Shown piece by piece: positions 2,382-42,255 of a DNA stretch of 61,268 nucleotides. A program made the position numbers and the translations under genes. This stretch comes from a virus (lineage: Duplodnaviria > Caudoviricetes), in IMG/VR virus record IMGVR_UViG_3300036791_000423, positions 1 through 61,268 of that record. One strand, written 5' to 3'. Numbering within the stretch: the stretch's first letter is position 1; each line of letters starts with the position of its first letter. The notes under the pieces were generated by a model. It was not told where the DNA came from. It made no database searches and saw only the letters and a program-made list of their open reading frames with translations.

Positions 2382-2397
2382 GTAAAAGGAACCAACC

Positions 2398-11885: not shown

Positions 11886-11888
11886 CCC

Positions 11889-12248
11889 ATGATCCAGATC
11901 ACCCGCCGCTATCACTTTGAAGCCGCGCATTTCCTGCCCAAGGTCCCTGAAGGCCATAAGTGCAAACGCATGCATGGCCACAATTATGAGATCGAAGTCA
12001 CCGTCGCCAAGCCGCTAGGTAAAGACGGCTTCCTGATGGATTTCGCGGACCTCGACAAGCTGGTACAGCCAATCATTGACAAGATTGATCACCGCACGCT
12101 CAATGACATCAAAGGTCTTGAAAATCCAACGGCTGAACTGATCGGTCAGTGGTTTATGGACAAGCTGGCCAAGCATGATGTGCATGGTATAAGAGTGTAT
12201 GAGACAAAAGATTGTTGGAGCACAATCTGGAGGCCAGCCGATGAATGA
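11889..12248 (+). CDS. queD: 6-carboxy-5,6,7,8-tetrahydropterin synthase
   Basis: FEAAH..., C.RMHGHNY, DHRTLND, NPTAE, VYET. Confidence 0.95.
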   Translation: MIQITRRYHFEAAHFLPKVPEGHKCKRMHGHNYEIEVTVAKPLGKDGFLMDFADLDKLVQPIIDKIDHRTLNDIKGLENPTAELIGQWFMDKLAKHDVHGIRVYETKDCWSTIWRPADE

Positions 12249-12831: not shown

Positions 12832-12843
12832 GGGAGTGATCAT

Positions 12844-13836
12844 ATGCGTATCTATCTGGCAGGCTGGTGGCATGTCGGCAACGCCATCGGAACCAACATC
12901 CATCAGTATAATCTGCATACCGTGCGGTATCCGTTTCATCTCGAGTCGTTCCATTACATGGACCGGCAAATCATTCAGCAGGCCCGCATGGCACAGACCA
13001 AGATGTTCTTGGACAGTGGCGCATTCAGCGCCATGACACAAGGCGTAAAGATCAACATCAAGGCTTATGCCAAGTTCATCCAAGGCAATCAGGACATCGT
13101 CGATTTCGCTTCCAATCTTGACGATACCACCAAGACCGAACAGGTAAGTTACGACAATCAAAAGTATCTGGAAGGTGCAGGCTGCCAAGTCAAGCCGGTG
13201 TTCCATTGTCGCGAAGACGAGAAATGGCTGCGCCGCTATATCGACGAAGGTTACGACTACATCCTGTTGGGCGGCATGGTCCCAGAAACCACCAAATGGC
13301 TAATCGGCTGGCTTGATCACCTTTGGCATCACTACTTTACTAAATCAGATGGTACCGCACGGTTCAAGGTTCATGGTTTTGGCTTGACCAGTCTACCGCT
13401 GATGTATCGCTATCCATGGTATAGCGTCGATTCGTCATCATGGGCACAGACCGCCAAGTTCGGCGGTGTCCTGCTTGACATCATGCAGCCTGATGGCAGC
13501 TATAAGGATTACAACATCGAGTTTTCCGACAACACCGCCAGCCGTTATAATCTGCACGGCTGGCACTATTGGAGTTTAAGCAAAGATGAGCAGCGGACAA
13601 TTGAAAACCGCTTGGCCGAGATGGAGGAAGCACGCCATAAAAATCCTGAAATCGAAGACCGCTTGGCGGTGATGATGAAATGCAAACAAGGCTTCTACCC
13701 CGAAGCTTTGGCCAAATCTTACGGCTGGCGCATGTATGCCAATCTGGAATATTTCCGCCGTGCCATGGAACGCCGCGTCACAACGTTTCGTCGTAAGCAG
13801 GATACTCTGTGGGACCACTTTGGGAGGACCGGATGA
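12844..13836 (+). CDS. dpdA: DNA 7-deazaguanine transglycosylase (TGT-like)
   Basis: FLDSGAFS, PVFH, LGG, VHGFG, YPWYSVDSSSW motifs; embedded in the que cluster. Confidence 0.85.
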   Translation: MRIYLAGWWHVGNAIGTNIHQYNLHTVRYPFHLESFHYMDRQIIQQARMAQTKMFLDSGAFSAMTQGVKINIKAYAKFIQGNQDIVDFASNLDDTTKTEQVSYDNQKYLEGAGCQVKPVFHCREDEKWLRRYIDEGYDYILLGGMVPETTKWLIGWLDHLWHHYFTKSDGTARFKVHGFGLTSLPLMYRYPWYSVDSSSWAQTAKFGGVLLDIMQPDGSYKDYNIEFSDNTASRYNLHGWHYWSLSKDEQRTIENRLAEMEEARHKNPEIEDRLAVMMKCKQGFYPEALAKSYGWRMYANLEYFRRAMERRVTTFRRKQDTLWDHFGRTG

Positions 13837-14005
13837 TGCCGGGAAGTGTAGGTCGAGCAAAGAAATCCGTCGAACAGATCATGGATCGCTTAGATGAGTT
13901 TCAAGGCAAGCACCAAGATGATATGGCCATGCTTGAACTATCAGCTATCATCAGAGAGCTTGCTTTTACACTCCAACATCTATTGGAAAGCGCGAGGGAG
14001 CCGCA

Positions 14006-14227
14006 ATGAAAGATGAAAAACAAATTGATGCTTCGATTGCACGCCAGTTATCGCGTTCAATGATGAAAAACGCCAAGCTGACTGCTCGGCTGCACGCGCT
14101 ACGGGCGGTTGTCGAAACCGTCAGAACGACTCTCCCGGATAATCTTGTTTGGGACAATCCTTTACGTGACCTTTGCACCAAGGCATTGGAAATCGATAAT
14201 ACGTTAGCCGAGAAGGAAGACCTATGA
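14006..14227 (+). CDS. hypothetical protein
   Basis: GAGGGAG RBS; overlapping stop/start. Confidence 0.55.
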   Translation: MKDEKQIDASIARQLSRSMMKNAKLTARLHALRAVVETVRTTLPDNLVWDNPLRDLCTKALEIDNTLAEKEDL

Positions 14228-14457
14228 TCAAGCAATGGATCGAAGATCGATGCGTGCGCTGGCTTGCATCGCGCGGCTATCACAGCATAAGAGTGGGCGT
14301 GCCATATCTGATCATGACCTATGCTACGGGTACTTTTCATGATGTTTACGATGGCACGGTTTATACGATCCACATGCCGAAAGGACATAAACGCGTGGCA
14401 TTGCTAAACACGGTGCTTGTGCCAGACAAGCCGCCACCGATGCCGAGGAAAAAATGA
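14224..14457 (+). CDS. hypothetical protein
   Basis: ATGA-coupled ORF. Confidence 0.5.
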   Translation: MIKQWIEDRCVRWLASRGYHSIRVGVPYLIMTYATGTFHDVYDGTVYTIHMPKGHKRVALLNTVLVPDKPPPMPRKK

Positions 14458-15422
14458 AACAATCGCTCAAATGGATCACTGATGCGATCAGTACCAAGGA
14501 TGTGGCGCATGGCATGTCGCATTACAAGATTGCCGAGCGCCAGATACGCGCGACCAATGGCCGCTTGATTGCGGCGCACCCGTGGCCAGCCGACGGAAGC
14601 TTCGTCGTACCGGGTGATGAGTTTGAAAAGCTTGTTGGCCGCATGCCGGAAGAACCCACGATCAAAATCAATGACAACAGCATCACTGTTCGCGCCGGAC
14701 GCTACCATGGCACGATCAATACCCTTAGTCCTGATGCATGGATACAACCGGGTGTCGATGAAGCTGATTGGAAAAAACTGCCACCGCGGCTGTTGCCTGT
14801 CCTGCATGCACTACGCCCATTCGTCAGTGACAATGCCATGCAGCCATGGGCGGACTGTATCGCGCTGGAAAACAATTGGGGATACGCCACCAACAATGTG
14901 GCCTTGGCTGGCGCACATTGTCCCGGCCTCGGCAAGATCATGGCGCTACTGCCATCATGGGCGGTTGACTTTATCCTGACAAGGGAAGAAGGAATCACTG
15001 ATTGGGCTTGGACGGCAAACTATGTTGCTTTTCGCTGGCAGAACAATGCTTGGCTACGATCGACGCTGGTGATCGGACAATTTCCAGAGCGCGCGGCCGA
15101 ACTGGTGCGATCAAGTCTTGATGAAAAACCATCGCAGGAAATCAGTGATGATTTTCGCAAGGCCTTTAACAGTGTGGCGCATATGGCCGAGGACACGATC
15201 GAAGTGCATGCCGACAAGATGGTAGCACGTTTCAAGCAAGCCGAAGTCATTGCTGAGATCGAATGCGAAGTGCCCAATGGCTGCAAGTGTTCGATATGGG
15301 GAGCAACTTACCTGGTACCGGCGATTAACTCAGCAACACATTGGCAACCTAGTCTATGGCCGAAGCCTGTTCCGTTTAAAGGTGACATGGTCAGCGGCTA
15401 TGTCGTCGGCAGACGAATGTGA
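14454..15422 (+). CDS. DNA sliding clamp (DnaN beta)-like protein
   Basis: 322 aa; repeated ATNG/ATNN motifs analogous to the AT(D/N)G repeats of beta clamps; lies in the replication region. Confidence 0.55.
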   Translation: MKQSLKWITDAISTKDVAHGMSHYKIAERQIRATNGRLIAAHPWPADGSFVVPGDEFEKLVGRMPEEPTIKINDNSITVRAGRYHGTINTLSPDAWIQPGVDEADWKKLPPRLLPVLHALRPFVSDNAMQPWADCIALENNWGYATNNVALAGAHCPGLGKIMALLPSWAVDFILTREEGITDWAWTANYVAFRWQNNAWLRSTLVIGQFPERAAELVRSSLDEKPSQEISDDFRKAFNSVAHMAEDTIEVHADKMVARFKQAEVIAEIECEVPNGCKCSIWGATYLVPAINSATHWQPSLWPKPVPFKGDMVSGYVVGRRM

Positions 15423-15536
15423 ACACTGGTAGATGTGATCAGGTTTGAGTGGTTCCTTTCCTGATTTAGTCTGCCAGCTAGGAGGCGGTGGTGGGTAAGT
15501 ACGCCGCCGCCTCCGACCTTAACAGGAGAAATAAAA

Positions 15537-16235
15537 ATGCACGGAAAAAATCATATAGAAAGAGTGAAACATGACGAGGGCATGGAATTGCATGTTGTCA
15601 AAGGTAGTCCGTTTCTCACTATCCAAGGCGAAGGGCCATATATCGGATATCCGGCTATCTTCATTAGGCTGCATGGTTGTCATCTACGTTGCGTATTTTG
15701 CGATACTGCTTTTGATGATGCCGACGACCCGACTTGGACCATCTACGATCTTGTCGGCAAAATCACCCGCATTTGTAAGCTTGCCAAACTTGTCGTCATC
15801 ACCGGCGGCGAACCCATGCGGCAAAACATCAAACCACTATGCCAACAATTATGCGGCAACGGTTTCCGCGTGCAAATAGAAACCGCCGGAACATTTTGGC
15901 TGGATGGCATCGAAAAATATGCCGATATTGTCTGTTCGCCCAAGACACCGACAATCCACAAAGAGGTATATCGTCATGCCAGAGCCTTCAAATATGTCAT
16001 CAGTACTGGACAGATTTTCGACGATAGCTACCCTGTACCAATTACAGCGACGCAACCGGAAGCGCGGCCGAACCGGCTGGCGTTGCCGCGCCGCGGTGCG
16101 GCGGTTTATCTTTCGCCGATGGACGAAGGAGATGAAACCGCCAATGCTGCCAATCGTAAACTCGTCGGCGAACTCGCCATTCGATTCGGAGTCATCGCCG
16201 GAATCCAATTGCACAAATTTATAGGTGTCGAATGA
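15537..16235 (+). CDS. queE: 7-carboxy-7-deazaguanine synthase (radical SAM)
   Basis: TIQGEG..G..AIFIRL.GCHLRCVFCDT, VITGGEP, IETAG, QLHK. Confidence 0.95.
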   Translation: MHGKNHIERVKHDEGMELHVVKGSPFLTIQGEGPYIGYPAIFIRLHGCHLRCVFCDTAFDDADDPTWTIYDLVGKITRICKLAKLVVITGGEPMRQNIKPLCQQLCGNGFRVQIETAGTFWLDGIEKYADIVCSPKTPTIHKEVYRHARAFKYVISTGQIFDDSYPVPITATQPEARPNRLALPRRGAAVYLSPMDEGDETANAANRKLVGELAIRFGVIAGIQLHKFIGVE

Positions 16236-22766: not shown

Positions 22767-22818
22767 GTTTATCTACGGACCGGCCTTTAATGGCCGGTCA
22801 AAGATGCACTTACGCATC
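22765..22818 (+). repeat. Structured intergenic element family A, copy 4 (covariant)
   Basis: ATCT/AGAT replaces ATCG/CGAT; different inner stem GACCGGCC/GGCCGGTC; same GATGCACTTACGCATC 3' end. Confidence 0.8.
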
Positions 22819-22833
22819 AAAAGGAACCAAACC

Positions 22834-23547
22834 ATGTCAACACGAAAGGTAATAGGCGCGGCTCTGTCCGCGCTGGCTATAACGACGGGAGCGGCGCATG
22901 CCGCTAACATCACGGCAGAGCGTGATGGTTGTACCCCGAAAGACTGCTACGTCATCAAGGTTGACGGCGAGATCAAGCTTAACGATGAAAAAAAGTTTGA
23001 TGCCGTAATCAAGGCCAACAATATCAAGGTGGCCGTGGTTTATCTGGATAGTCCGGGTGGCAACATGCTGGCTGGCTTGTTAATGGGTCTATCTATCCAC
23101 GAGCACAATTTTGCAACGATGGTCTATTACGACACTCATTGCGTTAGCATGTGCTCAGCCATGTGGATGGCAGGCGGCAAGCGATATGCCACACCCACAT
23201 CCAAGATCGGTTTCCATCAGGTTTACACCTTGGATAGGCGTGGCCGGATGCATTCTGATGCAATGGGTACTGCAATGATGAAAAAATACTACGCGGAAAT
23301 TGGCGTGCCAAAACCGGCCGCAGACTTCCTCGTGGCGGCTGATCCAAACGATGTATACTGGCTCAACGGAGACCTCGCCGCTGGCTTTAAGATCGATGTG
23401 ACCACGCTCGATGACAAAAAAGAGGAGCCTAAAAAAGACCTTAGCAAGACCTGCATTCCCGGTGCGGTTGTATGTCCCGATCAAAGCGCCTCGGTCACCG
23501 TGCCCAAGGCCTTTGTCGAGAGCCTGATGACCAAGAAGCCACTCTAA
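22834..23547 (+). CDS. exported ClpP/crotonase-fold protein (COG3904-like)
   Basis: Signal peptide (AAHA cleavage), LDSPGG, CVSMC...AG..R.....KIGFH. Confidence 0.7.
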   Translation: MSTRKVIGAALSALAITTGAAHAANITAERDGCTPKDCYVIKVDGEIKLNDEKKFDAVIKANNIKVAVVYLDSPGGNMLAGLLMGLSIHEHNFATMVYYDTHCVSMCSAMWMAGGKRYATPTSKIGFHQVYTLDRRGRMHSDAMGTAMMKKYYAEIGVPKPAADFLVAADPNDVYWLNGDLAAGFKIDVTTLDDKKEEPKKDLSKTCIPGAVVCPDQSASVTVPKAFVESLMTKKPL

Positions 23548-23581: not shown

Positions 23582-23612
23582 AAAAGGCCTCCGGATTTTC
23601 GGAGGCCTTTTT
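23582..23612 (+). terminator. intrinsic terminator
   Basis: AAAAGGCCTCCG-gatttt-CGGAGGCCTTTTTT. Confidence 0.8.
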
Positions 23613-23890: not shown

Positions 23891-24265
23891 ATGAAGCATA
23901 TCGATATCCAAGAAATCATCGATGCTGTACCGCTTCGACCTGTGATGTCACGTCGTGACAAGCTATTGCGTTGGGCGCAATTGGTTGATCGGTGCCATAG
24001 CGACTTGGCGCTTTACCATGGCATCGAATATATGCGGCCATATGATCTCAACAACATCCGGCCATATGCTACCACAAGAAGTGCCTTTACGATTGCCATC
24101 ACAGACCCGACGTTCCAAGCCATGGGCCTGACGCTATCCAGCTCGTTGATTGACACCATGCGGTTCTTCGAACTATCGCAGGATCAACTTCATGGATTCT
24201 CCTGTGATTGCGGTGGCTATATCGACAATCACGAACAGGCCCGACGCATTGCGCATCTAGCCTGA
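23891..24265 (+). CDS. hypothetical protein
   Basis: CAGGAG RBS. Confidence 0.65.
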   Translation: MKHIDIQEIIDAVPLRPVMSRRDKLLRWAQLVDRCHSDLALYHGIEYMRPYDLNNIRPYATTRSAFTIAITDPTFQAMGLTLSSSLIDTMRFFELSQDQLHGFSCDCGGYIDNHEQARRIAHLA

Positions 24266-24371: not shown

Positions 24372-25079
24372 ATGGCACGAGCAAAGAAAACATTGTCCGC
24401 CGACGTAGTGCAGCTAACCCAAACCCAGCGAGCCGCAAAGCAAGCCGCTACACCAAAGCCTGAAACCAAGGTCGTGATCACGCCGCCCAAGCTGGCCACA
24501 GCCACTGTCACTATCATCGGCAAAGCTCCCTATCTGCAAAACCGCTTTTCATCCGACAATCGTGACAAGATGATGGAGGCGCAAAAGGCTGGTAGCGCGG
24601 CCAAGAAAACCCGCAAGGCCAAGGCACCCAAAGACTTTGAAAAGGTCTATCGCGGTTCAATGCATGTATCGCAGGATGGCTGGCACGGCATCCCTTGCAC
24701 TGCCTTACGGAACGCCATGATCGACGCGTGCCGCTTGACCGAGATGGACATGGTGCGCGCCAAGATGTGCATATTCATCGTCGAACAAGGCCGTGACAAG
24801 GAAAACCTCGAGCCGCTGGTAAAGATCGATGGTAAGCCGCAGATGCATATCGAACGTGTCAAGGTTGGTATGGGCAGCACCGACCTTGCCGCGCGTGCGA
24901 TGTTTGTCAAATGGTCCTCGACGTTTGAGATCACATGGGATGACGACGTATTCCATGCACAGGATATCATCAATCTATTGGCCCGTGCAGGCTGGCAAGT
25001 CGGCATCGGTGCCGGTAGACCATTCTCAAAAATGTCTGGTGGTACTGGCAAGGGGACCTTTGAGGTACGGCAGTCATGA
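24372..25079 (+). CDS. stand-alone RAMP/Cas7-like RNA-binding protein (Vipr-like)
   Basis: N-terminal strand ATVTIIGKAPYL, GIPCTALRNAMIDA (cf. RAMP IPGSSLKG.LR), and a C-terminal Gly-rich loop GIGAGRP...GGTGKGTFEV; no other cas genes; next to the pentamer array. Confidence 0.7.
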   Translation: MARAKKTLSADVVQLTQTQRAAKQAATPKPETKVVITPPKLATATVTIIGKAPYLQNRFSSDNRDKMMEAQKAGSAAKKTRKAKAPKDFEKVYRGSMHVSQDGWHGIPCTALRNAMIDACRLTEMDMVRAKMCIFIVEQGRDKENLEPLVKIDGKPQMHIERVKVGMGSTDLAARAMFVKWSSTFEITWDDDVFHAQDIINLLARAGWQVGIGAGRPFSKMSGGTGKGTFEVRQS

Positions 25080-25363
25080 CCGCACACGACGAAGGCTTTA
25101 TTCCCGACGGTACGATGTGGCTGCAACCCAAAAATACGTTGCCGCGCATCGAGCAGCTATGGGCCATTGTATCGGTGGACGCCCAAGATGGTAACGAAGG
25201 CGTCTGCGCCGCCATGATCGGTGGCGTAATCATGCCGCTGATTGCCGCTGACGAAAAGCGGCTCGAACAGATTGTGCCGATTGCGAAAGAAGTCGCGGCC
25301 GAGACCGGCACAAAGTTTAAGCTGGTAAGGTTTAGCAATCGCGAGGAGGTATCGGACATATGA
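25076..25363 (+). CDS. hypothetical protein coupled to the RAMP gene
   Basis: ATGA overlap on both sides. Confidence 0.65.
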   Translation: MTAHDEGFIPDGTMWLQPKNTLPRIEQLWAIVSVDAQDGNEGVCAAMIGGVIMPLIAADEKRLEQIVPIAKEVAAETGTKFKLVRFSNREEVSDI

Positions 25364-25803
25364 GTATCGAAAAGGAACTACTTGGCTTGATGAACGCCGA
25401 AGGCCTGATCGTGGCCGAGGCAGCCGAAAAGTGGGCGGCGAGTCATCGGCAATCGGACCTTGCCAAACAATTGGAATGGGACAACCGGGTAGCTGGCAAG
25501 CAATACCGGATCAATCAAGTAAGGCAATTGATCGTAAGCCTAAAGATCACAATGGGCAACGGTACCAAGCGGTTCTATTCGCTGTCCATCGATCGCGGTA
25601 ACAAGAAAGGCGGTGGCTATCGCGATATCGGCGATATCATGAAGTCCAAGACACTTTACGATATATTGCTTCAGGATGCACTTAACGATTTGCAGCGCAT
25701 GCAGGAGCAGTATGAACGCTTGCGCGAGCTGCAACCGATATGGAAGGAGGCCGAGAGGATCAGGAAACGAAAAAAGACCAAGGAGGACCGCGCCAATGTT
25801 TAG
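25360..25803 (+). CDS. hypothetical protein, candidate partner of the RAMP/array system
   Basis: GAGGAGG RBS; EWDN..AG.QYRI.Q.RQLI motif. Confidence 0.65.
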   Translation: MSIEKELLGLMNAEGLIVAEAAEKWAASHRQSDLAKQLEWDNRVAGKQYRINQVRQLIVSLKITMGNGTKRFYSLSIDRGNKKGGGYRDIGDIMKSKTLYDILLQDALNDLQRMQEQYERLRELQPIWKEAERIRKRKKTKEDRANV

Positions 25804-25918
25804 ACGCTGGTGCTGTTTCTGGTTCCATTATCCTTTCTATCAGGTAACCAGAACCGATGTCTGCACAACGCAAATGCATTGCAGCTATTGCGATCGTAGC
25901 TGGATTGTCTTGCACTAG
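25796..25918 (+). CDS. 40 aa Cys-rich peptide
   Basis: AGGAGG RBS; stop abuts the first array delimiter. Confidence 0.4.
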   Translation: MFRRWCCFWFHYPFYQVTRTDVCTTQMHCSYCDRSWIVLH

Positions 25919-27185
25919 GCAGGCATAGCAGTTCTTTGCCGAGCTGAGCTGTGATTAGTCTAGCAAAGCGGAGCTGAACATAGCCCAGCAGGCAAAGCGG
26001 AGCAACTCAGGGCCACTCGTCACCGAGCTTAGCCTAACCCTGCTCGCCCGTACCCTGCACATCGTGTCAGCGCTTAGCAGTGCAGGCCAAGCTCTCCATA
26101 GCTAAGCCGAGCTTGGTACTGGCGGTGCGCAGTAAAGCAGGCTAAGCTAAGCGAAGCCACATGGAGCAAAGCCCAGCACAGCAGGCAAAGCCAATCAGTG
26201 CAAAGCGGAGCGGTGCGGTGTCAAGCTTGGCTTAGCGGGCAGAGCTTACCTAGGCTGACAACGGCGAAGCGGTGCAAGGCAGGCATGGCATGGCATGGCA
26301 TGGCGTAGACGGTCCTTGCGATCTATGTGCGTGGCCCGGCTAGGCAGGCCAAGCCAAGCATAGTATACCAAGCTTAGCGTAACCGAGCAGAGCAGGCCGT
26401 GCATGGCACAGCCGATCTTGTCCGTGCATAGTCGAATCAAAGCGATGACCAGCGGAACTTGGACCGGCAAAGCAGGCGCAGCAAATCCAAGCGGAGCCTG
26501 TTACATCGTAGCGAACTGAAGCCTAGCATGGCAGGCGAAACTGAACAAAGCGCAGTCCAACCCGGCGGTGCTGAGCGTCTCTGACCACAACTGAGCGCGA
26601 CACGGCACAGCAGGCAAAGCACTTTACGGCTTAGCGTAGCTTGACGTTACACTGTCCTGCCGAACCGTCCTGAGCAGAGCAGGCTATGTGATGATATGCG
26701 AAGCGTTTCGATGCGAAGCGGATCGTGGCTAAGCAGGCCAAGCGAACCACAGCAGATCGTAGCCCAAGATGCATAGTGAAGCCGCTCACTGTTAAGAACG
26801 GCCGAGCTAGGTATAGCAAGACGAAGCCAACCGCTGCGAAGCGATGCATAGCAGGCATGGCATAGCTTCACTAGTCAGAGCGTAGCGTGGCCGATCTCTG
26901 CAAGCCGGACCAAAGCAAAGCTGGCCCAGCAGAACAAGTCCCGGCCCTGTCGTGCTGATCAGTGTACTGCCCGACAAATTCGAGCGAGACCGGGCAATGC
27001 GCAGCAGGCCAAGCTAAACTTAGTAGTGCTTGATCTGGCAGTGCTTGGCAAAGCAGGCACGGCAATGCAAGGTCGCGCCGAGCCCGATCAGGCCCATCGT
27101 GGCCCAGCCTAGCTCAGCAGGCATGGCACAGCTCCGCATCCAGTACAAAGCGAAGCGAAGCTTGTCATCGCAGCGCAATGCTGGC
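25919..27185 (+). ncRNA. pentamer-periodic putative guide-RNA array, block 1 (19 units)
   Basis: Runs of NN(A/G/T)GC pentamers separated by AGGC at 25921, 25990, 26084, 26139, 26183, 26237 (GGGC), 26281, 26346, 26394, 26474, 26533, 26612, 26681, 26735, 26853, 26922 (TGGC), 27006, 27055, 27119, 27182 (TGGC). The pattern is seen directly; RNA function is inferred. Confidence 0.8.
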
Positions 27186-27221
27186 ATATTAAACTTCAAG
27201 CGACCAAAGCAAGGGAGCACC

Positions 27222-27395
27222 ATGATGAAATACAAATTATTTGTCGTCTTGGCGTTGTTCTCCGCAATATGCTTGATCACTGGTTACATGCTATCACGAG
27301 ACCAAATGTCGGCGTGGGCACTGCTGGCTTTTATACTCAGCAGTTGGTTCGCGCTGTCATTTGGTTTTATGGTTGGATTGTTTGGTGCAAGGTAA
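27222..27395 (+). CDS. 57 aa two-helix membrane protein inserted in the array
   Basis: AAGGGAG RBS, two hydrophobic segments; pentamer periodicity stops across it and resumes at its stop codon. Confidence 0.65.
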   Translation: MMKYKLFVVLALFSAICLITGYMLSRDQMSAWALLAFILSSWFALSFGFMVGLFGAR

Positions 27396-27396
27396 A

Positions 27397-28517
27397 GCAG
27401 GCTTGGCATAGCGGAGTGACGTTGAGCATAGTCAAGCGAAGCAGGCAATACAGTGCTAAGCTCGGCTGACTATGCTATGACCAGCGAAGCAGGCAGTGCA
27501 TAACCTAGCGACACCCGGCGTGGCAAAGCGCTATCAGCAAATCAATGCGTTGCAGGCTTAGCCTTCCAAGCCAAGCACGGATCATCACAGCGTAGTTATG
27601 CTCTGTCAAACCAAAGCAGGCCGAGCACTGCCCAGCATGCCTCGGCAAACATGGCGGTGCATATCCATGCTAAGCTGAGCAGGCTATGCGAAGCCACGTT
27701 GTTCTGTGCGGAGAGGAGCATGTCAAAGCACGGCTCGACCATGCAGGCGTAGCCCAGCTAGGCCGAGTGGAGCACGGCTTGGCGCATTCCTAGTTGAGCA
27801 AAGCTGAGCAGAGCTGGCGAGGCATTGCTAGGCTAAGCCTTGGCATCAAAGCACAGCAAGGCAATGCCTAGCAGGCCGAGCTTGGCTTAGCCGATTGGTG
27901 CGGTGCGCGGCATAGCGGAGCAGGCTAAGCTTGACAAATCCTAGCAAGACAGAGTCAAGCGGCGTCTGGTGGAGCCCAGCAAGGCAAGCAATGCGGTGCT
28001 TTCCGGAGCGCTGCAAAGCCCGATAGGTCTCAGCGATGCAGGCGAAGCGGAACGCTGCCAAGCTTTGCCAGACATTGCGACGCGTAGCAGGCACAGCCTT
28101 GCTAAGCGAATCCCGGCACTAACCAGCCTAGCACAGCAGGCCCAGCCCAGCGTACCGAATCGTTGCCCGGTGCTGCATACCAGTGTTCTGCAAAGCGAAG
28201 CTATACAAAGCAGGCATAGCCAAGTTGCACGCACCATTGCTGTGTTCAGCACACATATCGTAGCAAAGCAGGCTCCGCAGTTAAGCGCCTTCGGCATTGT
28301 AAAGCTCTGCATGACCTAATCCAAGCGGTGCAGTGCCCAGCGGAGCAGGCTAAGCCAAATCGCTCGAGACTAAGCAAAGCTTGCCGGAGCACAGATGAGC
28401 GAAGCTGTGCAGGCGTAGCGAAGCGCGATATAGTAAAGGGTGCTTTGCCGAACGGCGCAATGCCGAGCAGGCTAAGCGAAGCGTACAAAAAGCCTAGCTT
28501 AACACTGCTTAGCAGGC
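27397..28517 (+). ncRNA. pentamer-periodic putative guide-RNA array, block 2 (19 units)
   Basis: AGGC delimiters at 27399, 27443, 27491, 27554, 27618, 27681, 27745, 27815 (TGGC), 27873, 27922, 27986 (AAGC), 28040, 28089, 28138, 28212, 28270, 28347, 28411, 28469, 28514. Confidence 0.8.
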
Positions 28518-28519
28518 AC

Positions 28520-28555
28520 AAAAAAGGCGTTGGACCGGGAGGCTGGCCCAACGCC
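28520..28555 (-). terminator. intrinsic terminator of the late operon, facing the array
   Basis: GGCGTTGG...CCAACGCC stem preceded on the + strand by A6 (a U-tract on the - strand). Confidence 0.7.
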
Positions 28556-30681: not shown

Positions 30682-32172
30682 CTACCTTCCCCTGAAGTCC
30701 AGCCACCCAATGCCATCGGCGCGGAACAGCACACCGGCCGCCGCCGAGACGTTCGCGCTATAAAATTGCTGATTGTTGATTTTAAGCAGGATGTGCGCGC
30801 CACCAGCCGCCGTAGCCGCCGTGGCACCTTGGATCGAGACATAAGTACCAGTGTTGCTGTTAGACGCAGCGCTATCCGTCGCACATACGTTGCCGTAGGC
30901 CTGTGTAGTAACCCCTGCCTCACTGTCCTGCATGTAGATATTGAGGAAGCCCAGCACGGAGATGCCTGCGGGCATCGAGACCAGTGTTCTCAGGATCGTA
31001 GCCGCGCTCCCAGAGTTGACGCTGATGTCACCCACGGGAGCGACCCACCCGAAGTGGTCATAGAGATTGGTGACTGGCCTCCAAACCGATGAGGCGTTGA
31101 TGTACAGCGTCGCGATGCGGCGAGCCAGCGTCCAACCTGATTGCAGCGTCGGTGCTGTTGCCGAGAGCGAAAACGTTATGTCAACTGCAATCGGAGGTCC
31201 GAGCTTCTCGATCAGATGGATATGATACCAGGTGCTCGCAGCAATTGCACCAGTGTCCAACCCTCCATTTCCAGTGCCAGCCGCCCACGCGGCAGTGGTC
31301 TTGCTCATGGCAGCGGCAAGTATCATAAACGCGGCGTTGGTGCTGTCCGCCGCGACACCTGGCTGCATGGTGAGCGTGTTACCAGAAACAGATATTCCCA
31401 GTCCAGAGAGATAGTTTCTCAGGACGTACAGTGGGTGGACGTGGTCCTCGCGAGAGAAGTTAGTTGAGACACCCACCACCGCAGTTGGAGCATTGACCAG
31501 CGGCAGCGCGACACCCGGCGATCCCGCACCCGGAAGGCCTTGGATGCCTTGGGGACCTCTGATGTTTCCCTCGAGCGTCCATACTCCTCCAACTAGTGTA
31601 TAAACATCACCATTAGTCGTATTGAGATAATTGTCACCATTCAATTGTCCGGTGATCGTGCCTGGAGCGCCAGCGCCAGTATAAAACAGGCTGCCACGAA
31701 CGCCCTGAATACCTTGGATTCCCTGAGGACCGACTAGAGATATGCCCGTGGGCCACACCCCGGCTGCTCTTGGGCCATAGATGAAATTGGTCGAGGTATT
31801 GATATAAAAATCGCCGTCGATGCCGATCGCTCCGGTTGGTGCACCGGCACCGTAAAGAACAGAATTGCCGCGCGGTCCCTGTGGACCAACAATTGAAACC
31901 CCAACCGGCCAAGCACCAGCTTGCTTTGGGCCGAATAGAAAATGGGTGTTCGTATTGATATAGAAATCACCTTCTTGACCGACGCTTGGGAGCGGATCGG
32001 CCGTACCATACCAGATCGTGTTGCCATCTGTACCCGGAGTACCCTGCGGTCCCTGCGGACCAACTGGGCCTTGCTCCGGAACCTCTATGACCTCGAGCTC
32101 GGTGTCGGCCGTCACGATAACGGCATCGGCAGGCTCTGCCGTGATAACGATGCCTCCGCCGACATCAGTCAT
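30682..32172 (-). CDS. tail fibre protein with short collagen-like and repeated G.GAP...G.DGD.Y.NT modules
   Basis: Repeats in the translation; position after the baseplate genes. Confidence 0.75.
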   Translation of the reverse strand: MTDVGGGIVITAEPADAVIVTADTELEVIEVPEQGPVGPQGPQGTPGTDGNTIWYGTADPLPSVGQEGDFYINTNTHFLFGPKQAGAWPVGVSIVGPQGPRGNSVLYGAGAPTGAIGIDGDFYINTSTNFIYGPRAAGVWPTGISLVGPQGIQGIQGVRGSLFYTGAGAPGTITGQLNGDNYLNTTNGDVYTLVGGVWTLEGNIRGPQGIQGLPGAGSPGVALPLVNAPTAVVGVSTNFSREDHVHPLYVLRNYLSGLGISVSGNTLTMQPGVAADSTNAAFMILAAAMSKTTAAWAAGTGNGGLDTGAIAASTWYHIHLIEKLGPPIAVDITFSLSATAPTLQSGWTLARRIATLYINASSVWRPVTNLYDHFGWVAPVGDISVNSGSAATILRTLVSMPAGISVLGFLNIYMQDSEAGVTTQAYGNVCATDSAASNSNTGTYVSIQGATAATAAGGAHILLKINNQQFYSANVSAAAGVLFRADGIGWLDFRGR

Positions 32173-32525
32173 GTGTTCGTCCCTCGGCTCGGACCGGCAT
32201 TGTTGGTCAGAGAGCCCGACCAAATCCTAAGATGCTGTTCACCATTTATACGGATCAACGAGTGCACATAATCTCCGAGAGGAAGCTGTTGGAGTTGCTC
32301 ATAAGTAATGGTCAACGTGAATGCTCCGCTTGGCGGACTGGTGATAGTCAAACCGCCGTTCTCCGTCGTGAGCAACAGGTCCTCAGTGACATCTGTCGCC
32401 TGTCGTCGGATACCCATTCGCATCGTGTTGCCACCGAGATCGATGGGCAACCCGGTTTGATCACGATAGATAAAGCCGCGCACGAAGTCGGCGTCATTCT
32501 CGCAGGTGATATCACAGATAGCCAT
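32169..32525 (-). CDS. tail/baseplate-associated protein
   Basis: Beta-rich ORF between two fibre genes. Confidence 0.6.
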   Translation of the reverse strand: MAICDITCENDADFVRGFIYRDQTGLPIDLGGNTMRMGIRRQATDVTEDLLLTTENGGLTITSPPSGAFTLTITYEQLQQLPLGDYVHSLIRINGEQHLRIWSGSLTNNAGPSRGTNT

Positions 32526-39182: not shown

Positions 39183-39787
39183 TATCTCCTCACGCGCATG
39201 GTCTTTTGTTGAGTTGGAAAACGATTTGCGAACGTACTGTTCTCCGCCGGAGGATCAGGTCCAGCTAATCCGGCCTGCGTCTGTTGTCGCAATGTATCCG
39301 CCGCGCTGTTTAACACGGTGTTTGTGTTTTGCGATGGCGTAAGATATTGTGGCGGCAAACCAAACTCAGAAAATTCTATATCGAATGTGCAGTAGCCACC
39401 GAACCTTTCTTCTTCTGTCAATCTATATCTCGTGACAACAACGTTCTCAGACGGTCTAGTAGAAAGAATCAAGGTACCGGGTCCGGGTTGCTCCAGCGCA
39501 GTGATCAATGCATTTCTGGTGACCCGATAATCTACGTTATATAATCCATCCAAAAACGGACCTTCCATGGTGAATGGATGCGTGATGCAATAAACCCGCA
39601 GCGTAAATGTCTTGGCCTTCCTCCCCATGTCCTCGGCATAAGGCAACTCTTTCTTTGGAAATTCGTGCTCAACAATCCTGCGACCGCTATCCCTGCTATT
39701 GGCTTCGCAGAAAAACGGTGCATTCCTAAATGAAGCTGTGACCCAATCATCGCGAAATGGAAGATGGATATCTTTGATTGTGCTCAT
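39182..39787 (-). CDS. Mu-like DNA circularisation N-terminal domain protein
   Basis: ASFR..PF......GRR...HEFP.....EDMGR. Confidence 0.85.
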   Translation of the reverse strand: MSTIKDIHLPFRDDWVTASFRNAPFFCEANSRDSGRRIVEHEFPKKELPYAEDMGRKAKTFTLRVYCITHPFTMEGPFLDGLYNVDYRVTRNALITALEQPGPGTLILSTRPSENVVVTRYRLTEEERFGGYCTFDIEFSEFGLPPQYLTPSQNTNTVLNSAADTLRQQTQAGLAGPDPPAENSTFANRFPTQQKTMRVRR

Positions 39788-42255
39788 GGGGCAATTGCCG
39801 TATCTTTGACGTTACTGGTACTGGGACCTGTCGCAGCAGTAACCATCTGAGTCTGGCGCTCCGGAGCAGTTGGCTTAAACAGCTTCTCACTACCGAGCGT
39901 GGCATCACTTCCGGCACTGGCAACATTTACCTTTACGCTACCAGTCGCATCAACCTTTACCGTCTTAATCGATTTGCGATCGACTGTAGCTCTATTGGCT
40001 TCCGCAGCAGCAGCCGCCTTTGGATCGGCGGTAGCATCCGCTTTTTCGAGCTCAGCTTGTCGCGCCTTTCTCCATTCCACTGAACCGGGATAACCCCAAT
40101 CATTAAACCGTTCTTTATTGATATTGACACCGATCCCACCGGCTTCATAATTCGGGTCACCCTTGCTGCCTTGATCTGTATAGCTCTTGATTGTATTGGC
40201 ACCGCCAAGCGCTGAGTCGATCCGCTTGTTCATCTCCGCGGCATATTTCGGATCGTTCATCTTCTGGAGGTGTTCCCCAATGTACCCATGCTTGATCGGG
40301 CCATAGAAGCTGTGACCATAAGTGCCCATCATCTGCTTGAGCGTAAGTGGCTTCAGTCCTCGCTTGGCCCGAGAGGCGTTCACCAACTCTGTCCGATTCA
40401 TCAGGCTCTCTGCAACCGCAGAACCAGCTCCAACATTTTCCGAGCTGATCACAGCACCAAGTAACTTGCGGGTCTCTGGGTCCTTCAGCTCCTCTTTAAA
40501 TCCGGCTCGCTTCCTGGCCAGCAAGGCGGCGGCTCCCTCACCTTGAACTGCATCAGTACCACCACCGCCAGTCCCCTCTCCAAATTTTTGAGCCATATTG
40601 GCAGCGGTCGCCTCTGGAGTTGTAGCGCCAAGCACTCCTCTGGCCCTCGCGCCCTTGGTGAAGGTGTCCAGCTCGGGAGCGTTTAGAGGAGCACGACCAC
40701 CGCCTGGTGCCGCAGGACCGCCACCAGCAGCGCCGCCTCCGGATGGCTGCGCTGCGCCACCGCCAGCACCCTCTCCTTCACCACCGCCACCACCTCCGCC
40801 GCCCCCTCCACCGCCGCCTCCACCGCCGCCTCCTCCACCGCCACCGCCACCGCCACCACCATTCATGCTTTGCGGCGCTGTGCCCTGCGATGCGATATTA
40901 CCACCGCCTCCGCCATCACCACCTGGAGTCGTACCGCCTCCCCTTGCTCCTGGAGCTTCGATACCAAGTTGCTGGGCCGCGAGATAATCGTTTAATCTCT
41001 TTAGCTGACCGGTGTTGTCCCTCATAATATCAGTATGAGTATCAGTAGTATCTTCCATCGTTGATAACAAATGAGTTGCGCCTCCAACGGCCGCAGCTCC
41101 AGCCTTGCCACCCTTCGCTTCTGGAATATCACCCAATCCAAGTTGATCAGCCAGACCCTTTTGACCATATTTCTTAAGAGCCTCTGCGGTCAAAGGAGAT
41201 TTACCGATTGGCCCCGATACCTCTTCTGGATGTTCTTTTCCAAAGAAATAACGATCTATGCCAGATAAAGTTTTACCAACATAGGGTATCTCACTTTCTC
41301 TTTTGAGTATTCTCTCTTCAGTTTCTCCGCCTTGAGTAGCCCCATGCAAAAATTTTACTAACCGAATAATTTCGTGAAGACCTTCTACAATCAAGCCATC
41401 CGGAGCCAGCGCGGAAGTCTTGATATCTTCCATCCAACTATCCCACTCCTGTTTCAGAATAGTGGTCTGCTTATAGTAGTCAGCAGTTGCCGCAGAACGC
41501 TCGGTCATCAATCTCTTTTCTTCGTCACTGACCTCATGCAGATGTTGGATTAAAGCAAATGTCGGATCAATCCCCCACGCAGCCAAATATTCTTTAGTAA
41601 ACTCGGTCGCGTCAACAACATTATTGTTGGTCTCCTTTAAGCGATTGTTGTAGACGTTTTGCGCCTGAGCTAAAACTTCGTTGATCCTAGAGACCTCCGT
41701 ACGCTGATAGAGAATCGTCTGGATACCAGCTTCCATTTCCCTGCCATAGTGTCCAGCATCTTGCACAAGCTTAAAGTGCTCTGCACTACCGACACGGCCC
41801 ATCTTGGCATAGGCATCATTAAACTTGGCTACGTTTTGATCAGCCTGATCCGCACCCACTCCGATTTGAGCCAATTGCTCTTCTATACTTTTCAATACGG
41901 CCGGATGGACACCAATCACTTTCGCCTTGTTATTGAGCTCCACGATCTTGCTGGAAAATTCATTCAGACCTTTAATCCCTTCGGCCAAGACTAAGCTAAA
42001 TGCAGACACTGCTGCACCGGCCAATCCGAATTTACCGATGAAGCCAATCATGGCCTTTTCGCCACCAGTGACGAGCTCTTGCATCTCCTTTATCTGCTTG
42101 GCCATCTCATTGTGGCTTCGCTTGAAGCGCTCGATATGGCCTTGAGTAGCTCCGCCGCTCAATTGCTCGGATGCTTGGCGCAATTTTTCTATGCCACCGG
42201 ACGCATTGTCCGTTAGCGTGATGACAAGCCTTAGTTCTTCAACTTCAGTTGGCAT
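39784..42255 (-). CDS. tape-measure-like protein 2 with poly-Gly linker and SleB/Hydrolase_2-like domain
   Basis: Position after the chaperone; helical N-terminus; LLGAVISSEN..AGSAVAESLMNR. Confidence 0.65.
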   Translation of the reverse strand: MPTEVEELRLVITLTDNASGGIEKLRQASEQLSGGATQGHIERFKRSHNEMAKQIKEMQELVTGGEKAMIGFIGKFGLAGAAVSAFSLVLAEGIKGLNEFSSKIVELNNKAKVIGVHPAVLKSIEEQLAQIGVGADQADQNVAKFNDAYAKMGRVGSAEHFKLVQDAGHYGREMEAGIQTILYQRTEVSRINEVLAQAQNVYNNRLKETNNNVVDATEFTKEYLAAWGIDPTFALIQHLHEVSDEEKRLMTERSAATADYYKQTTILKQEWDSWMEDIKTSALAPDGLIVEGLHEIIRLVKFLHGATQGGETEERILKRESEIPYVGKTLSGIDRYFFGKEHPEEVSGPIGKSPLTAEALKKYGQKGLADQLGLGDIPEAKGGKAGAAAVGGATHLLSTMEDTTDTHTDIMRDNTGQLKRLNDYLAAQQLGIEAPGARGGGTTPGGDGGGGGNIASQGTAPQSMNGGGGGGGGGGGGGGGGGGGGGGGGGGGEGEGAGGGAAQPSGGGAAGGGPAAPGGGRAPLNAPELDTFTKGARARGVLGATTPEATAANMAQKFGEGTGGGGTDAVQGEGAAALLARKRAGFKEELKDPETRKLLGAVISSENVGAGSAVAESLMNRTELVNASRAKRGLKPLTLKQMMGTYGHSFYGPIKHGYIGEHLQKMNDPKYAAEMNKRIDSALGGANTIKSYTDQGSKGDPNYEAGGIGVNINKERFNDWGYPGSVEWRKARQAELEKADATADPKAAAAAEANRATVDRKSIKTVKVDATGSVKVNVASAGSDATLGSEKLFKPTAPERQTQMVTAATGPSTSNVKDTAIAP
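40781..40860 (-). repeat. GGN microsatellite-like tract encoding poly-glycine
   Basis: Run of CCA/CCG/CCT/CCC triplets on the + strand. Confidence 0.85.

Follow-up and report, generated by a model that had tools for sequence, protein, structure and literature searches.

A probable VIPR locus with a long staggered array of putative guides in a soil phage

The locus and its genes

The window analysed here is a 61,268-nt stretch of DNA from an IMG/VR virus record of a myovirus-like phage with sheath, baseplate, portal and terminase genes, and the only sequencing run that holds it is a DNA soil metagenome. A short run of genes on its + strand leads into a long periodic tract, with the following features (numbering of the + strand genes and array is by position in the window):

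23891..24265, + strand: ORF of 124 aa lying 5' of vipr, after a hairpin
24372..25079, + strand: vipr, a 235-aa single-domain Cas7-like RAMP, predicted to be a guide-RNA-binding protomer
25076..25363, + strand: gene B, 95 aa, lineage-specific and inserted between vipr and gene C
25360..25803, + strand: gene C, 147 aa, the conserved companion of vipr and a candidate vap
25796..25918, + strand: Cys-rich ORF of 40 codons, overlapping the gene C stop and ending directly on the first array junction
25919..27190, + strand: array part 1, vrRNA-like, with 19 units of guide size and a further one interrupted by an insert
26475..26533, + strand: the one guide unit for which an exact candidate target turned up, 11 dinucleotides at one-base spacing
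27222..27395, + strand: membrane ORF, 57 aa, two-helix, within an insert (27191-27396) that lacks the periodicity and divides the array
27397..28517, + strand: array part 2, vrRNA-like, 18 units, with the last GCAGGC at 28512
27682..27745, + strand: guide unit shared most widely within the clade, its NN string kept and its triplets differing
28526..28555, - strand: intrinsic terminator, an 11-pair stem then T6, ending a convergent late (lysis/structural) operon

The original prediction singled out a 235-aa protein with RAMP-like motifs, and the vipr ORF (GIGAGRPFSKMSGGTGKG) does contain a GIPCTALRNA motif and a Gly-rich loop at its C-terminus. The protein matches phrog_4652 (E 1.4e-19). A single-sequence search of the PDB returned the Vipr protein of phage SUSP1 at E 0.04 and nothing else up to E 10; SUSP1 Vipr belongs to VIPR, a CRISPR-related system first described in 2026 in which, according to the preprint text, a small Cas7-like protein reads guide RNAs in five-base steps (bioRxiv 10.64898/2026.04.26.720920). 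With a profile built from 42 homologues, SUSP1 Vipr was the one match (E 3e-6, the next standing at E 1.7), in an alignment that spans the thumb strand and the G-loop and covers only the C-terminal 59 profile positions. The AlphaFold model (pLDDT 87.5) drew 55 Foldseek matches at E<=1e-3, with CRISPR RAMP subunits in all of the matches listed, and VIA gave Z 10-12 against Cas7-family backbone subunits, including the Csm backbone subunit Csm3 (Z 12.0, rmsd 3.2 A, 148 residues, across 39-235). The structure comparison proposed as a check for an RRM/RAMP fold thus came out in favour of one: as modelled, Vipr has the RAMP/Cas7 fold, with an RRM core, a thumb and a glycine-rich loop in a single small domain. 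We take the thumb to be the long beta-hairpin 156-178 and the G-loop to be the Gly-rich segment 207-229, both assigned via alignment rather than by superposition on a Vipr structure. In that alignment the thumb arginine R138 of SUSP1 falls on the invariant R175 and the G-loop R179 on the invariant R216, and the residues that read G1 in SUSP1 are replaced (H17 by N57, D177 by A214).

As the original prediction stated, no cas genes are recognisable in the window: PADLOC returned no match to any Cas model over its 87 + 5 ORFs (92 in all). Nor were CRISPR repeats, Cas10, Cas5, Cas6 or Cas11 found there, and a class 1 CRISPR-Cas system was ruled out on the lack of a repeat-spacer array and of Cas5, Cas6 and large-subunit genes in the window.

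The genes leading to the array had been described as a translationally coupled run of four. Three of them hold up, joined by 4-nt overlaps (vipr/gene B and gene B/gene C); the fourth, the Cys-rich ORF, is open in one relative only (L011, 36/40 residues identical), so that we count three solid genes and one doubtful, and this segment could equally be the leader of the array. Gene C, a homologue of which adjoins vipr in 59/92 loci (tblastn), matches phrog_15946 (E 1.3e-12) and is a candidate vipr-accessory (vap) gene of the clade; structure searches with its model (pLDDT 87.8) gave no informative fold and no recognisable DNA-binding fold. Gene B has homologues in just 2/92 loci (L001 and L011) and no match in Pfam, PHROG, NCBIfam or PADLOC, and a comparison with the ESM Atlas found viral hypothetical clusters only. 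The 124-aa ORF is likewise without match in these four collections and has homologues immediately 5' of vipr in 2/92 loci, L001 and L002 only. A terminator scan placed a terminator-like hairpin 5' of this ORF (23582-23611, + strand), and the transcription unit may start with this ORF.

The periodic array and its units

The tract at 25919-28517 is 2.6 kb long and 5-nt periodic, made up of pentamers of the form [D-G-Y][NN]. AGC occurs at 66.5 per kb in the array against 18.2 per kb elsewhere in the window, and the distances from one RGC to another peak at 5k and 5k-1, with 113 pairs at +5 compared with 16.3 +/- 3.8 (max 30) in 500 dinucleotide-preserving shuffles. GCAGGC is present in 35 copies, where 1000 shuffles gave a mean of 1.2 (max 7), and the other 58.6 kb of the window hold 20 copies on the + strand. 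Junctions of the type AGC-A-GGC cut the array into ~38 units and shift the register by -1 (a 4-nt step). In all, 40 xGC-N-GGC junctions delimit 39 intervals, 22 of length 5k+4 and 11 of length 5k+3. Once the junction inside the ORF insert is dropped, 38 intervals remain, 37 of them guide-sized (44-118 nt) and one of 217 nt, and the 38 units counted earlier are therefore reproduced. The only constant segment of the units is ~7 nt long, AGCAGGC; no Rfam family matched in the array, and Tandem Repeats Finder reported just three short rows within the tract. The array had also been called non-coding. It is indeed a periodic tract co-oriented with the genes, but the insert at 27191-27396 carries the 57-aa membrane ORF, which is 72% identical in L011, and a promoter-like site (27162-27190) lies just 5' of this insert.

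In the best register, chosen to maximise RGC, the triplet is A.49/G.27/T.19 at position 1, G.75 at position 2 and C.86/T.10 at position 3, and the two variable positions have a flat composition. It is thus an A-dominant RGC and does not match GGY, the strict published consensus. The pentamers do combine a fixed triplet with a variable dinucleotide, but unit interiors are degenerate: canonical RGC occupies only 266/540 register slots and 11/39 intervals need a second register shift. Some units may have decayed.

Periodic tracts were also expected to adjoin homologues of the gene, and they do. The sample comprised 93 loci encoding relatives (the window, 80 viral and 12 genomic), and the detector called period-5 GC arrays of at least 100 nt no more than 2.5 kb from the gene. 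Such an array lies beside the gene, before or after it, in 76/93 loci, and downstream only in 61. A motif-free detector applied to 13 of the 17 array-less loci found GG-/GT-type period-5 tracts in 9 (at least 7/9 units in phase) and none such in the four others (L014, L023, L084 and L087). GGC-NN tracts adjoin the gene in two cultured phages, Cy-LDV1 and Mycobacterium phage Donkeykong. On the gene strand the fixed triplet among relatives is GGC, AGC or CGC, and arrays of all three types adjoin members of one protein family. The methods of the VIPR preprint list NNNGG, YNNNG and NNNNG as alternative repeats (bioRxiv 10.64898/2026.04.26.720920), and the CNNAG pentamer of our array fits the YNNNG class. 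The mixture of triplets in one family, together with these alternative repeats, resolves the earlier worry that AGC takes the place of GGY here.

Because GC is its own reverse complement, periodicity alone gives no strand, and the same family and array could in principle make its active RNA from the - strand, with guides read as GCY-NN; a promoter-like site on the - strand within the array (27609-27581, 10/12 matches) would suit such an RNA. Several observations argue against it. In the G-type relatives the fixed triplet is GGC on the gene strand, equal to the published GGY, and would be GCC if read on the opposite strand; arrays run in the direction of vipr and in most cases lie downstream of it; the membrane ORF within the array is encoded on the + strand; and the - strand operon has its terminator at the array edge, where it probably shields the array from antisense read-through. 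Softer evidence comes from the usage of NN steps (n=1418), which correlates with that of the first two codon positions when the + strand is read (r.64) but not for the reverse complement (r.02). We consider a - strand RNA very unlikely and read the array on the + strand.

Conservation of the variable dinucleotides

According to the original prediction each unit is a guide whose dinucleotides carry the information, and the comparative data, in which NN is conserved against drifting triplets, appear to bear this out. Among guides common to related phages the variable dinucleotides are 85-96% identical, with the fixed triplets at background identity. In blocks collinear with L011 (~91% identical), mismatch rates in the triplet are.197/.125/.100 (positions 1-3), against.056/.076 at NN (Fisher p 5.6e-4). 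Pairwise identity in a guide family found in four phages is.43/.67/.86 for the triplet and.96/.85 for NN, compared with a random-pentamer background of.32/.56/.79/.25/.25. The most widely shared unit, 27682..27745, has kept its NN string in L001 (23/24), L002 (22/24) and L011 (22/24), the copy in L011 being at another array position.

Two further readings of the array have to be weighed against these data. A decaying remnant, with a protein that is perhaps functional beside an array of largely eroded repeat DNA without current function, would be expected to show what we see in the many non-canonical slots, the degenerate interiors and the extra register shifts of some units. The NN positions, however, evolve more slowly than both flanks and triplets, and guides persist between phages that share only 78% identity in vipr; this argues for selection rather than decay, and we regard a remnant as extremely improbable. 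Alternatively, the array may act as DNA, either as a set of protein-binding sites or as a substrate for recombination, with gene C or Vipr as possible partners. Array content differs strongly between close relatives, as in recombination-prone repeats, which favours such a role. Binding-site arrays, however, conserve the site and not the spacer, whereas here the two-base "spacers" are conserved and the "sites" drift, and Vipr itself has a RAMP fold of the RNA-binding kind and is a homologue of a protein for which binding to such RNA has been demonstrated. A role as DNA is thus highly unlikely in our view, and guide RNA remains the preferred reading.

New guides might be written by an active templated process, that is, by de novo copying of codon positions 1-2 into an xGC scaffold, instead of being inherited unit by unit. 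The idea draws on the putative guides to a single target whose NN strings are left intact in four phages, the re-rolled triplets and the L011 copy at another array position. We think it improbable; were repeated de novo copying to occur, VIPR arrays would possess their own adaptation step. In a milder version, the drift of the triplet between GGC, AGC and CGC may follow substitutions at residues 173 (thumb) and 214 (G-loop), in which case Vipr-guide pairs would be mutually orthogonal and rivals could not load decoy guides.

Interpretation and relation to known systems

The Cas7-like protein, the 5-nt array, their linkage in relatives and the conserved dinucleotides together lead us to place the locus among the VIPR systems of the 2026 preprints. 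It is highly likely that this soil phage encodes a VIPR consisting of the Vipr protein, gene B, gene C and a staggered + strand array of ~38 units. The original prediction had pointed to phage VIPR loci with a RAMP protein and GGY/NN RNAs, and such systems are in print (bioRxiv 10.64898/2026.04.26.720920).

From the SUSP1 system we infer a mechanism in which operon and array would be transcribed rightwards, the RNA would be processed, and Vipr protomers would polymerise on it into a filament, one per pentamer. Each protomer would bury the fixed triplet (D-G-Y, mostly AGC or GGC) and present the next two bases. The presented dinucleotides would pair with double-stranded DNA holding the same dinucleotides with one skipped base between them, equivalent to codon positions 1-2, and binding would silence genes of competing phages or satellites. 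The 4-nt step at AGC-A-GGC would break the 5-nt register, so that each unit would be a separate guide. For SUSP1, the preprint text includes GGY>AGY among the tested substitutions and reports that perturbing the GGY motif abolished silencing (bioRxiv 10.64898/2026.04.26.720920); since the triplet here is not GGY, our clade must read position 1 differently.

One unit, 26475..26533, has an exact candidate target. Its match is 22/22, at a single site of IMG/VR (L094/G001) where the skipped base falls at wobble, although chance may account for this, the encoded peptide motif being common. The match is in frame with the codons AKHGLTVDDLM in the tail assembly chaperone gene of another phage, and the unit is kept in L011 (21/22). 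The matched phage has 68.5% G+C against 50.9% in the window, and none of the other guides of the clade (131 scanned) rose above shuffled controls in it. Four of the 5 guide patterns scanned against IMG/VR had no match, and neither had both metagenome scans for guide targets, exact-match scans of sparse soil data being a weak test. A search of the window for self-targets gave no match above the level of shuffled guides, with 13 real guides reaching at least 0.8 compared with 11, 14 and 14 in three shuffled sets; the preprint, where its text treats the matter, likewise reports no self-targeting for its VIPR systems (bioRxiv 10.64898/2026.04.26.720920).

The mostly empty scans under the one-base rule would suit a VIPR relative that targets RNA, like the type III Csm3/Cmr4 backbones, or that follows another skip rule, the one-base rule for DNA being inapplicable. 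The closest solved folds, which are RNA-targeting type III and VII backbones, and the departure of the first-base-reading residues from SUSP1 point the same way. Against this, the locus retains both the pentamer geometry and the arginines of thumb and G-loop, the single exact match follows the one-base rule with its skipped base at wobble, and the scans weigh little. We judge such a relative quite unlikely and continue to favour DNA as the probable target.

Class 1 Cas7 backbones (Csm3, Cmr4, type VII Cas7, Cas7-11) share with Vipr the RRM core, thumb hairpin and glycine-rich loop, and they polymerise on guide RNA with a fixed step, which is 6 nt there as against 5 nt in the locus. Guide information in the locus is non-contiguous, and the window differs from class 1 systems in lacking their CRISPR repeats, Cas10, Cas5, Cas6 and Cas11. 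Type II VIPR, that of Escherichia phage SUSP1 (bioRxiv 10.64898/2026.04.26.720920; structures in bioRxiv 10.64898/2026.04.26.720927; PDB 36pp), resembles the locus in its homologous protein (profile E 3e-6), the conserved thumb Arg and G-loop Arg-Pro, the five-nt step, an accessory gene after vipr (in the locus the candidate gene C) and its phage-borne setting. As described in the portions of these preprints drawn on here, however, SUSP1 vrRNAs are ~100 nt long and carry 9-16 strict YNNGG repeats plus an invariant, pseudoknotted 3' tail, whereas the units of the locus measure 44-118 nt, have no tail and no Rfam match and are constant only in AGCAGGC; H17, D177 and W178 of SUSP1 are N, A and G in our Vipr. 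A type II (SUSP1-like) assignment was rejected, as the array lacks vrRNAs of ~100 nt that end in an invariant structured 3' tail. Entropy periodicity has revealed non-canonical VIPR arrays (bioRxiv 10.64898/2026.10.21.760802), which are also period-5, with non-GGY triplets beside Vipr-like folds; the motifs given in the text of that preprint are GAC, CAC, WGT and TGH, and AGC, RGC and NGC do not occur in it as words.

The staggered and YNNNG variants of VIPR (bioRxiv 10.64898/2026.04.26.720920), insofar as the text and legends of the preprint describe them, likewise show a small Vipr RAMP standing alone in a phage, with neither cas genes nor a CRISPR array, together with a long intergenic stretch of pentamers (fixed triplet plus two variable bases) with degenerate interiors, one conserved accessory gene (here the candidate gene C) and no self-targets. 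Their staggered vrRNAs overlap by 1 nt (fig. S18 legend), and the 4-nt step at AGC-A-GGC amounts to the same 1-nt overlap of units; the staggered architecture stands, in that text, outside those confirmed by small-RNA sequencing. The locus differs in its A-dominant RGC triplet and in the length of its array (~38 units, 2.6 kb), which is split by a membrane-protein ORF. Judged by its sequence, it fits both the "staggered array" and the "YNNNG" variants. A system of this kind has thus already been published in the 2026 preprints, and the soil phage provides a large new example of it, with ~38 putative guides and a relaxed fixed triplet.

A Vipr-type protein ahead of a periodic array

The 235-residue protein encoded at 24372–25079 matches no Pfam or NCBIfam family and falls into an unnamed PHROGs family, and its sole sequence match in the PDB is the Vipr protein of Escherichia phage SUSP1 (36pp). 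Queried singly, the sequence reached E 0.04 in this match; a profile built from 42 homologues brought it to E 3e-6, with the runner-up at E 1.7. An AlphaFold model of the protein (pLDDT 87.5, pTM 0.78) gave 55 Foldseek matches at E ≤ 1e-3, all of those listed being CRISPR effector subunits. When realigned with VIA, 148 residues spanning positions 39–235 superimposed on a Csm backbone subunit with a Z-score of 12.0 and an rmsd of 3.2 Å, and the 50 entries listed were CRISPR effector complexes save for two titled just "a bacterial protein". The fold thus agrees with the RAMP/Cas7-like assignment of the original prediction, and sequence profile and model together indicate that the protein is a Vipr-type RAMP.

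The virus record is linear, 61,268 nt long and an estimated 83% complete according to IMG/VR, and a run search found the stretch in one sequencing run, a DNA soil metagenome that is possibly its source, and in no RNA run. PHROG matches outline a rightward module with a DNA polymerase, a sliding clamp and a 7-deazaguanine gene set, and a leftward late module with terminase, portal, major head, sheath, tube, baseplate, fibre and endolysin genes. The VIPR locus sits where the two modules converge:

23582–23611, + strand: terminator-like hairpin 5' of the vipr operon
3' of this hairpin and ahead of vipr, + strand: 124-aa ORF, first in the row
24372–25079, + strand: vipr, 235 aa
overlapping vipr by 4 nt, + strand: gene B, 95 aa
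overlapping gene B by 4 nt, + strand: gene C, 147 aa
25796–25918, + strand: 40-codon ORF with five Cys, overlapping the stop of gene C and ending at the first array junction
25919–28517, + strand: periodic tract
27162–27190: promoter-like site ahead of the 57-aa ORF
27191–27396: non-periodic, AT-richer insert that splits the array
27222–27395, + strand: 57-aa membrane ORF with two hydrophobic helices, within the insert
28555–28526, − strand: hairpin with a T6 run, terminator of the leftward operon, past the tract end at 28517

The 40-codon ORF, which is also open in L011, the locus of a close relative (36/40), could encode a small protein or merely be the array leader. The fold of gene C was sought widely, with a best E of 2.6 in Foldseek against the PDB, 0.042 in BFVD and 0.33 in the PDB profile search, a best Z of 5.3 in a wide VIA search that covered the C-terminal helical hairpin only, and just unnamed viral clusters in the ESM Atlas.

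The array is a genuine, co-oriented, 5-nt-periodic element, as had been claimed. AGC is 3.7 times denser in it than in the rest of the window, and RGC triplets (A or G followed by GC) are paired at +5 in 113 cases, compared with 16.3 ± 3.8 (maximum 30) in 500 dinucleotide-preserving shuffles. A period-5 GC detector that called 473 of 438,721 shuffled bases found solely this tract and an 80-nt stretch at 40842–40921 in the whole window. The latter, where T stands ahead of GC in 80% of cases, lies inside an 823-aa ORF (39784–42255) and is probably a coding repeat. Spacings between RGC triplets peak at both 5k and 5k−1, the second series arising because the consensus junction, AGC-A-GGC, steps 4 nt rather than 5 between fixed triplets. 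The hexamer GCAGGC occurs 35 times in the array (mean 1.2, maximum 7 in 1000 shuffles), and of the 39 intervals between the 40 xGC-N-GGC junctions, 22 have the form 5k+4 and 11 the form 5k+3. Triplet conservation peaks beside the junctions and declines into the unit interiors. The best register has A at.49, G at.27 and T at.19 in position 1, G at.75 in position 2, and C at.86 and T at.10 in position 3, figures that are upper bounds since the register was picked for maximal RGC; positions 4–5 are flat in composition. No Rfam family matched the tract, which argues against a hammerhead-interspersed array, and blastn of the operon against deposited phages gave no match. Contrary to the original prediction, the array is not wholly non-coding, since its insert carries the membrane ORF. 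Of the 92 loci compared by tblastn, L011 alone has a counterpart of this ORF, in the corresponding position and with 72% identity.

Several features elsewhere in the window deserve mention. Genes at 10983–16235 (+) encode QueC-like, QueD-like, GTP cyclohydrolase, queuine tRNA-ribosyltransferase-like (DpdA-type) and QueE-like proteins, with the sliding-clamp gene interleaved among this synthesis and insertion set. From this gene set, the phage probably modifies guanines of its own DNA, which, if true, could also alter recognition by the RNA-guided systems of rivals. Adjoining these genes upstream, 10485–10892 (+) encodes 135 aa matching the PADLOC candidate defence model PDC-M57A (E 8.7e-33). 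Directly ahead of the terminator that precedes the operon, 22804–23547 (+) encodes a 247-aa protein with a signal-like N-terminal segment, a match to phrog_30575 (E 1.8e-8) and a weak Pfam match (E 1e-3, short of the cut-off) to ClpP/NfeD-type serine proteases. The tail-fibre-like protein of 30682–32223 (−) contains many collagen-like G-x-x triplets (GPQGPQGTPG and similar).

Relatives of the locus and recognition of the triplet

A word-indexed search returned 357 relatives of the window Vipr protein at E ≤ 1e-3, and an exhaustive profile search returned 3,877 cluster representatives at that threshold, falling to 439 at E ≤ 1e-30. From the 201 loci confirmed in IMG/VR, 80 were selected and combined with 12 genomic loci and the window into a linkage set of 93. 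The 12 genomic relatives, from a set with one genome per species, show no more than 48% identity and come from a wide range of phyla, all on contigs of MAG type or draft status.

The original prediction tied the protein to periodic tracts that would also stand beside its homologues, and a GC array with period 5, 100 nt or longer, indeed lies within 2.5 kb of the vipr gene in 76 of the 93 loci, window included, solely downstream of the gene in 61. Typed by the base that precedes GC on the gene strand, the arrays are G-type in 49 loci (GGC, a canonical GGY), A-type in 14, mixed A/G in nine, among them the window, and C-type in three; that of L011 has a mixed composition outside these types. GC-N-GGC junctions recur in most relatives' arrays. 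Thirteen of the 17 loci that lacked an array call were inspected: nine carry GG- or GT-type tracts with 7–9 of 9 units in phase, and four, two of them short contigs, have no in-phase tract. By tblastn, a homologue of gene C lies beside vipr in 59 of 92 loci, and homologues of gene B and of the upstream 124-aa ORF are each found in 2 of 92.

Among deposited phages, vipr homologues, all annotated as hypothetical, occur in Cyanophage Cy-LDV1 (42% identity), five Gordonia phages (~30%) and 25 Mycobacterium phage records (~29%). In Cy-LDV1 (BK059895.1; ~4439–4520 of the extracted locus), the gap that separates g33 from the excisionase gene, downstream of the Vipr homologue g34, contains a GGC-NN tract; the locus adjoins a cI-like repressor region. 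In Mycobacterium phage Donkeykong (NC_051648.1; 2233–2310 of the extracted locus), GGC-NN pentamers and a GGCAGG junction fall within the annotated gp48 coding sequence and at the start of the Vipr homologue, gp49. It is possible that the gp48 annotation covers a guide RNA and not a protein.

How the triplet is read can be approached through SUSP1 Vipr, for which the portion of the structural preprint used here describes G1 as read by H17 and D177, G2 as held by R138 of the thumb and W178, and Y3 as held by R179 and a narrow pocket (10.64898/2026.04.26.720927). In an HMM alignment, R138 corresponds to R175 of the window protein and R179-P180 to R216-P217, and both R175 and R216 are invariant across the Vipr family. 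D177 and W178 are replaced by A214 and G215, and H17 aligns with N57 in a stretch that scores nothing by itself. The alignment thus suggests that the contacts for triplet bases 2–3 are conserved and those for base 1 lost, and this loss would fit the loose first base of the window array.

Residues that might set the first base were compared in 51 non-redundant proteins with typed arrays, after incomplete proteins, array-less or mixed-array loci and duplicates had been dropped. Thumb residue 173 is Arg in all 30 G-type and both C-type proteins, in 4 of 8 mixed ones and in none of 11 A-type ones. In the G-loop, residue 214 is Ala throughout the 19 A or mixed rows, whereas the G-type rows have Glu (15) or Ala (15) and the two C-type rows have Glu; the residue is acidic in none of the 19 A/R-type rows. 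Position 57 is Cys in both C-type rows. We hypothesize that residues 173 and 214, and perhaps 57, are triplet-specificity determinants, on correlations that are confounded by phylogeny: the A and mixed types form largely one clade (support 78), and an independent-pairs test, with no more than about two informative pairs in the tree, lacked power. For specialists, these proteins offer a natural series of GGC, AGC and CGC readers with candidate specificity residues.

Guide evolution and candidate targets

From vipr into the array, L011 and the window share ~91% identity, and comparison of the L011 array (1150–3040) with that of the window shows a mosaic: certain blocks of units are shared in the same order, many units of the window lack an equivalent, and differences involve whole units. 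Array content turns over much faster than the genes do. A blastn comparison over all positions yielded the shared blocks; in them, triplet positions 1–3 mismatch at rates of.197,.125 and.100 and the variable pair at.056 and.076, or 75/534 versus 22/335 (Fisher p 5.6e-4). The unit at 27682–27745 behaves likewise. Its copy in L001, whose vipr gene is 78% identical to that of the window at the nucleotide level, keeps 23 of 24 variable bases with 11 of 36 triplet bases changed, and the copies in L002 and L011, the latter at another array position, keep 22 of 24. Pairwise identity among the four copies is.43/.67/.86 across the triplet and.96/.85 across the dinucleotide, against.32/.56/.79/.25/.25 for random pentamers from the same arrays; the L002 and L011 copies were found via dinucleotide matching, so their dinucleotide identity is ascertained, while their near-background triplet identity is free of this effect. 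A second guide family (27987) shows the same behaviour. This is the pattern expected if the selected information resides in the two variable bases and the triplet is merely a handle, and it provides comparative, experiment-independent evidence for selection on the former and not on the latter.

Targets proved harder to find. Searched against the window and 80 related loci with skips of 0, 1 or 2 bases, 32 window guides did no better than shuffled guides. Larger collections were scanned for exact one-base-skip matches with five guide patterns in IMG/VR. Guide 27682 had no exact viral or metagenome match, either with its 23 specified bases or in a relaxed 20-base form, and guides 26184 and 27056 had none in IMG/VR. 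Guide 26475–26533 (22 specified bases) had one, in a complete 39,397-nt phage record, G001. The match is in frame with the codons A-K-H-G-L-T-V-D-D-L-M of a 138-aa gene that has the tail tube gene on one side and the tape-measure gene on the other and matches a tail assembly chaperone family (phrog_10551, E 1.1e-4); all skipped bases are wobble positions, and the guide reads as the sense strand.

Several observations bear on whether this gene is a natural target. The first eight dinucleotides of the guide have 21 matches, compared with six for the backwards pattern; all 21 encode A-K/N-H/Q-G-L-T-V-D/E in frame, and several lie within what we take to be a peptidoglycan-binding-domain motif (FQAKHGLTVDGIVG). 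Because this eight-codon peptide is common, the rough chance expectation of the exact match rises from ~0.005 to ~0.04. When 131 guides of ten arrays were compared with the whole of G001, only 26475 and its L011 copy matched; at a threshold of at least 0.85, the G001 search returned six real guides versus 4 of 655 shuffled ones. The G+C content of G001 is 68.5%, against 50.9% for the window, and the window has no homologue of the matched gene. The G+C gap, the lone guide, the common peptide and the missing window homologue all argue against the gene as a natural target, leaving it a candidate only, and we consider it unlikely, with a small but real chance, that the match is biologically meaningful. 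As the skip rule is blind to synonymous sites, the true target could be any gene that specifies this peptide in a phage infecting the true host. Dinucleotide usage in ten arrays (1418 steps) correlates with codon positions 1–2 of the window genes in the sense orientation (r.64) and not in the antisense one (r.02), which is at best suggestive of a sense codon reading.

Relation to published VIPR systems

The portions of the VIPR preprint drawn on here describe a Vipr RAMP, usually one vap gene and vrRNAs of 9–16 YNNGG repeats, which pair with targets through the NN dinucleotides with one base skipped, usually the wobble; the systems silence rival phages and satellites and fall into seven types (10.64898/2026.04.26.720920). 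The phage VIPR loci invoked in the original prediction are thus published, and the window locus is a member. Its reservation about AGC stands as description, the array being mostly AGC and of mixed A/G type, and falls as an objection, given that GGC-, AGC- and CGC-type arrays all stand beside members of one protein family. The reading of the locus as an RNA-guided system is supported; by its sequence, it is a large example, of AGC/GGC type, from a branch that has been little studied, and its kind is already published.

The locus leaves the general understanding of VIPR unchanged. VIPR was discovered only months ago, and its experimental foundation is a pair of closely related systems, both of type II; the biology presented in a third preprint, as far as the part used here goes, was shown in E. 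coli. The branch to which the window belongs is large (3,877 cluster representatives, E ≤ 1e-3) and unstudied, uses the staggered architecture that the VIPR preprint proposed and did not confirm, and includes cultured relatives suited to bench work among mycobacteriophages and Gordonia phages.

The same portions of the VIPR preprint mention "a related consensus" and the alternative repeats NNNGG, YNNNG and NNNNG, and a figure legend (fig. S18) describes "staggered arrays" of vrRNAs overlapping by 1 nt; there, small-RNA sequencing confirmed the ribozyme-interspersed and single-guide architectures and not the staggered one (10.64898/2026.04.26.720920). Non-canonical fixed triplets reported elsewhere are GAC, CAC, WGT and TGH, with AGC not named in the parts of that text used here (10.64898/2026.10.21.760802). 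The window pentamer, CNNAG, fits the YNNNG repeat, and its 4-nt junction step fits the 1-nt overlap of the staggered arrays.
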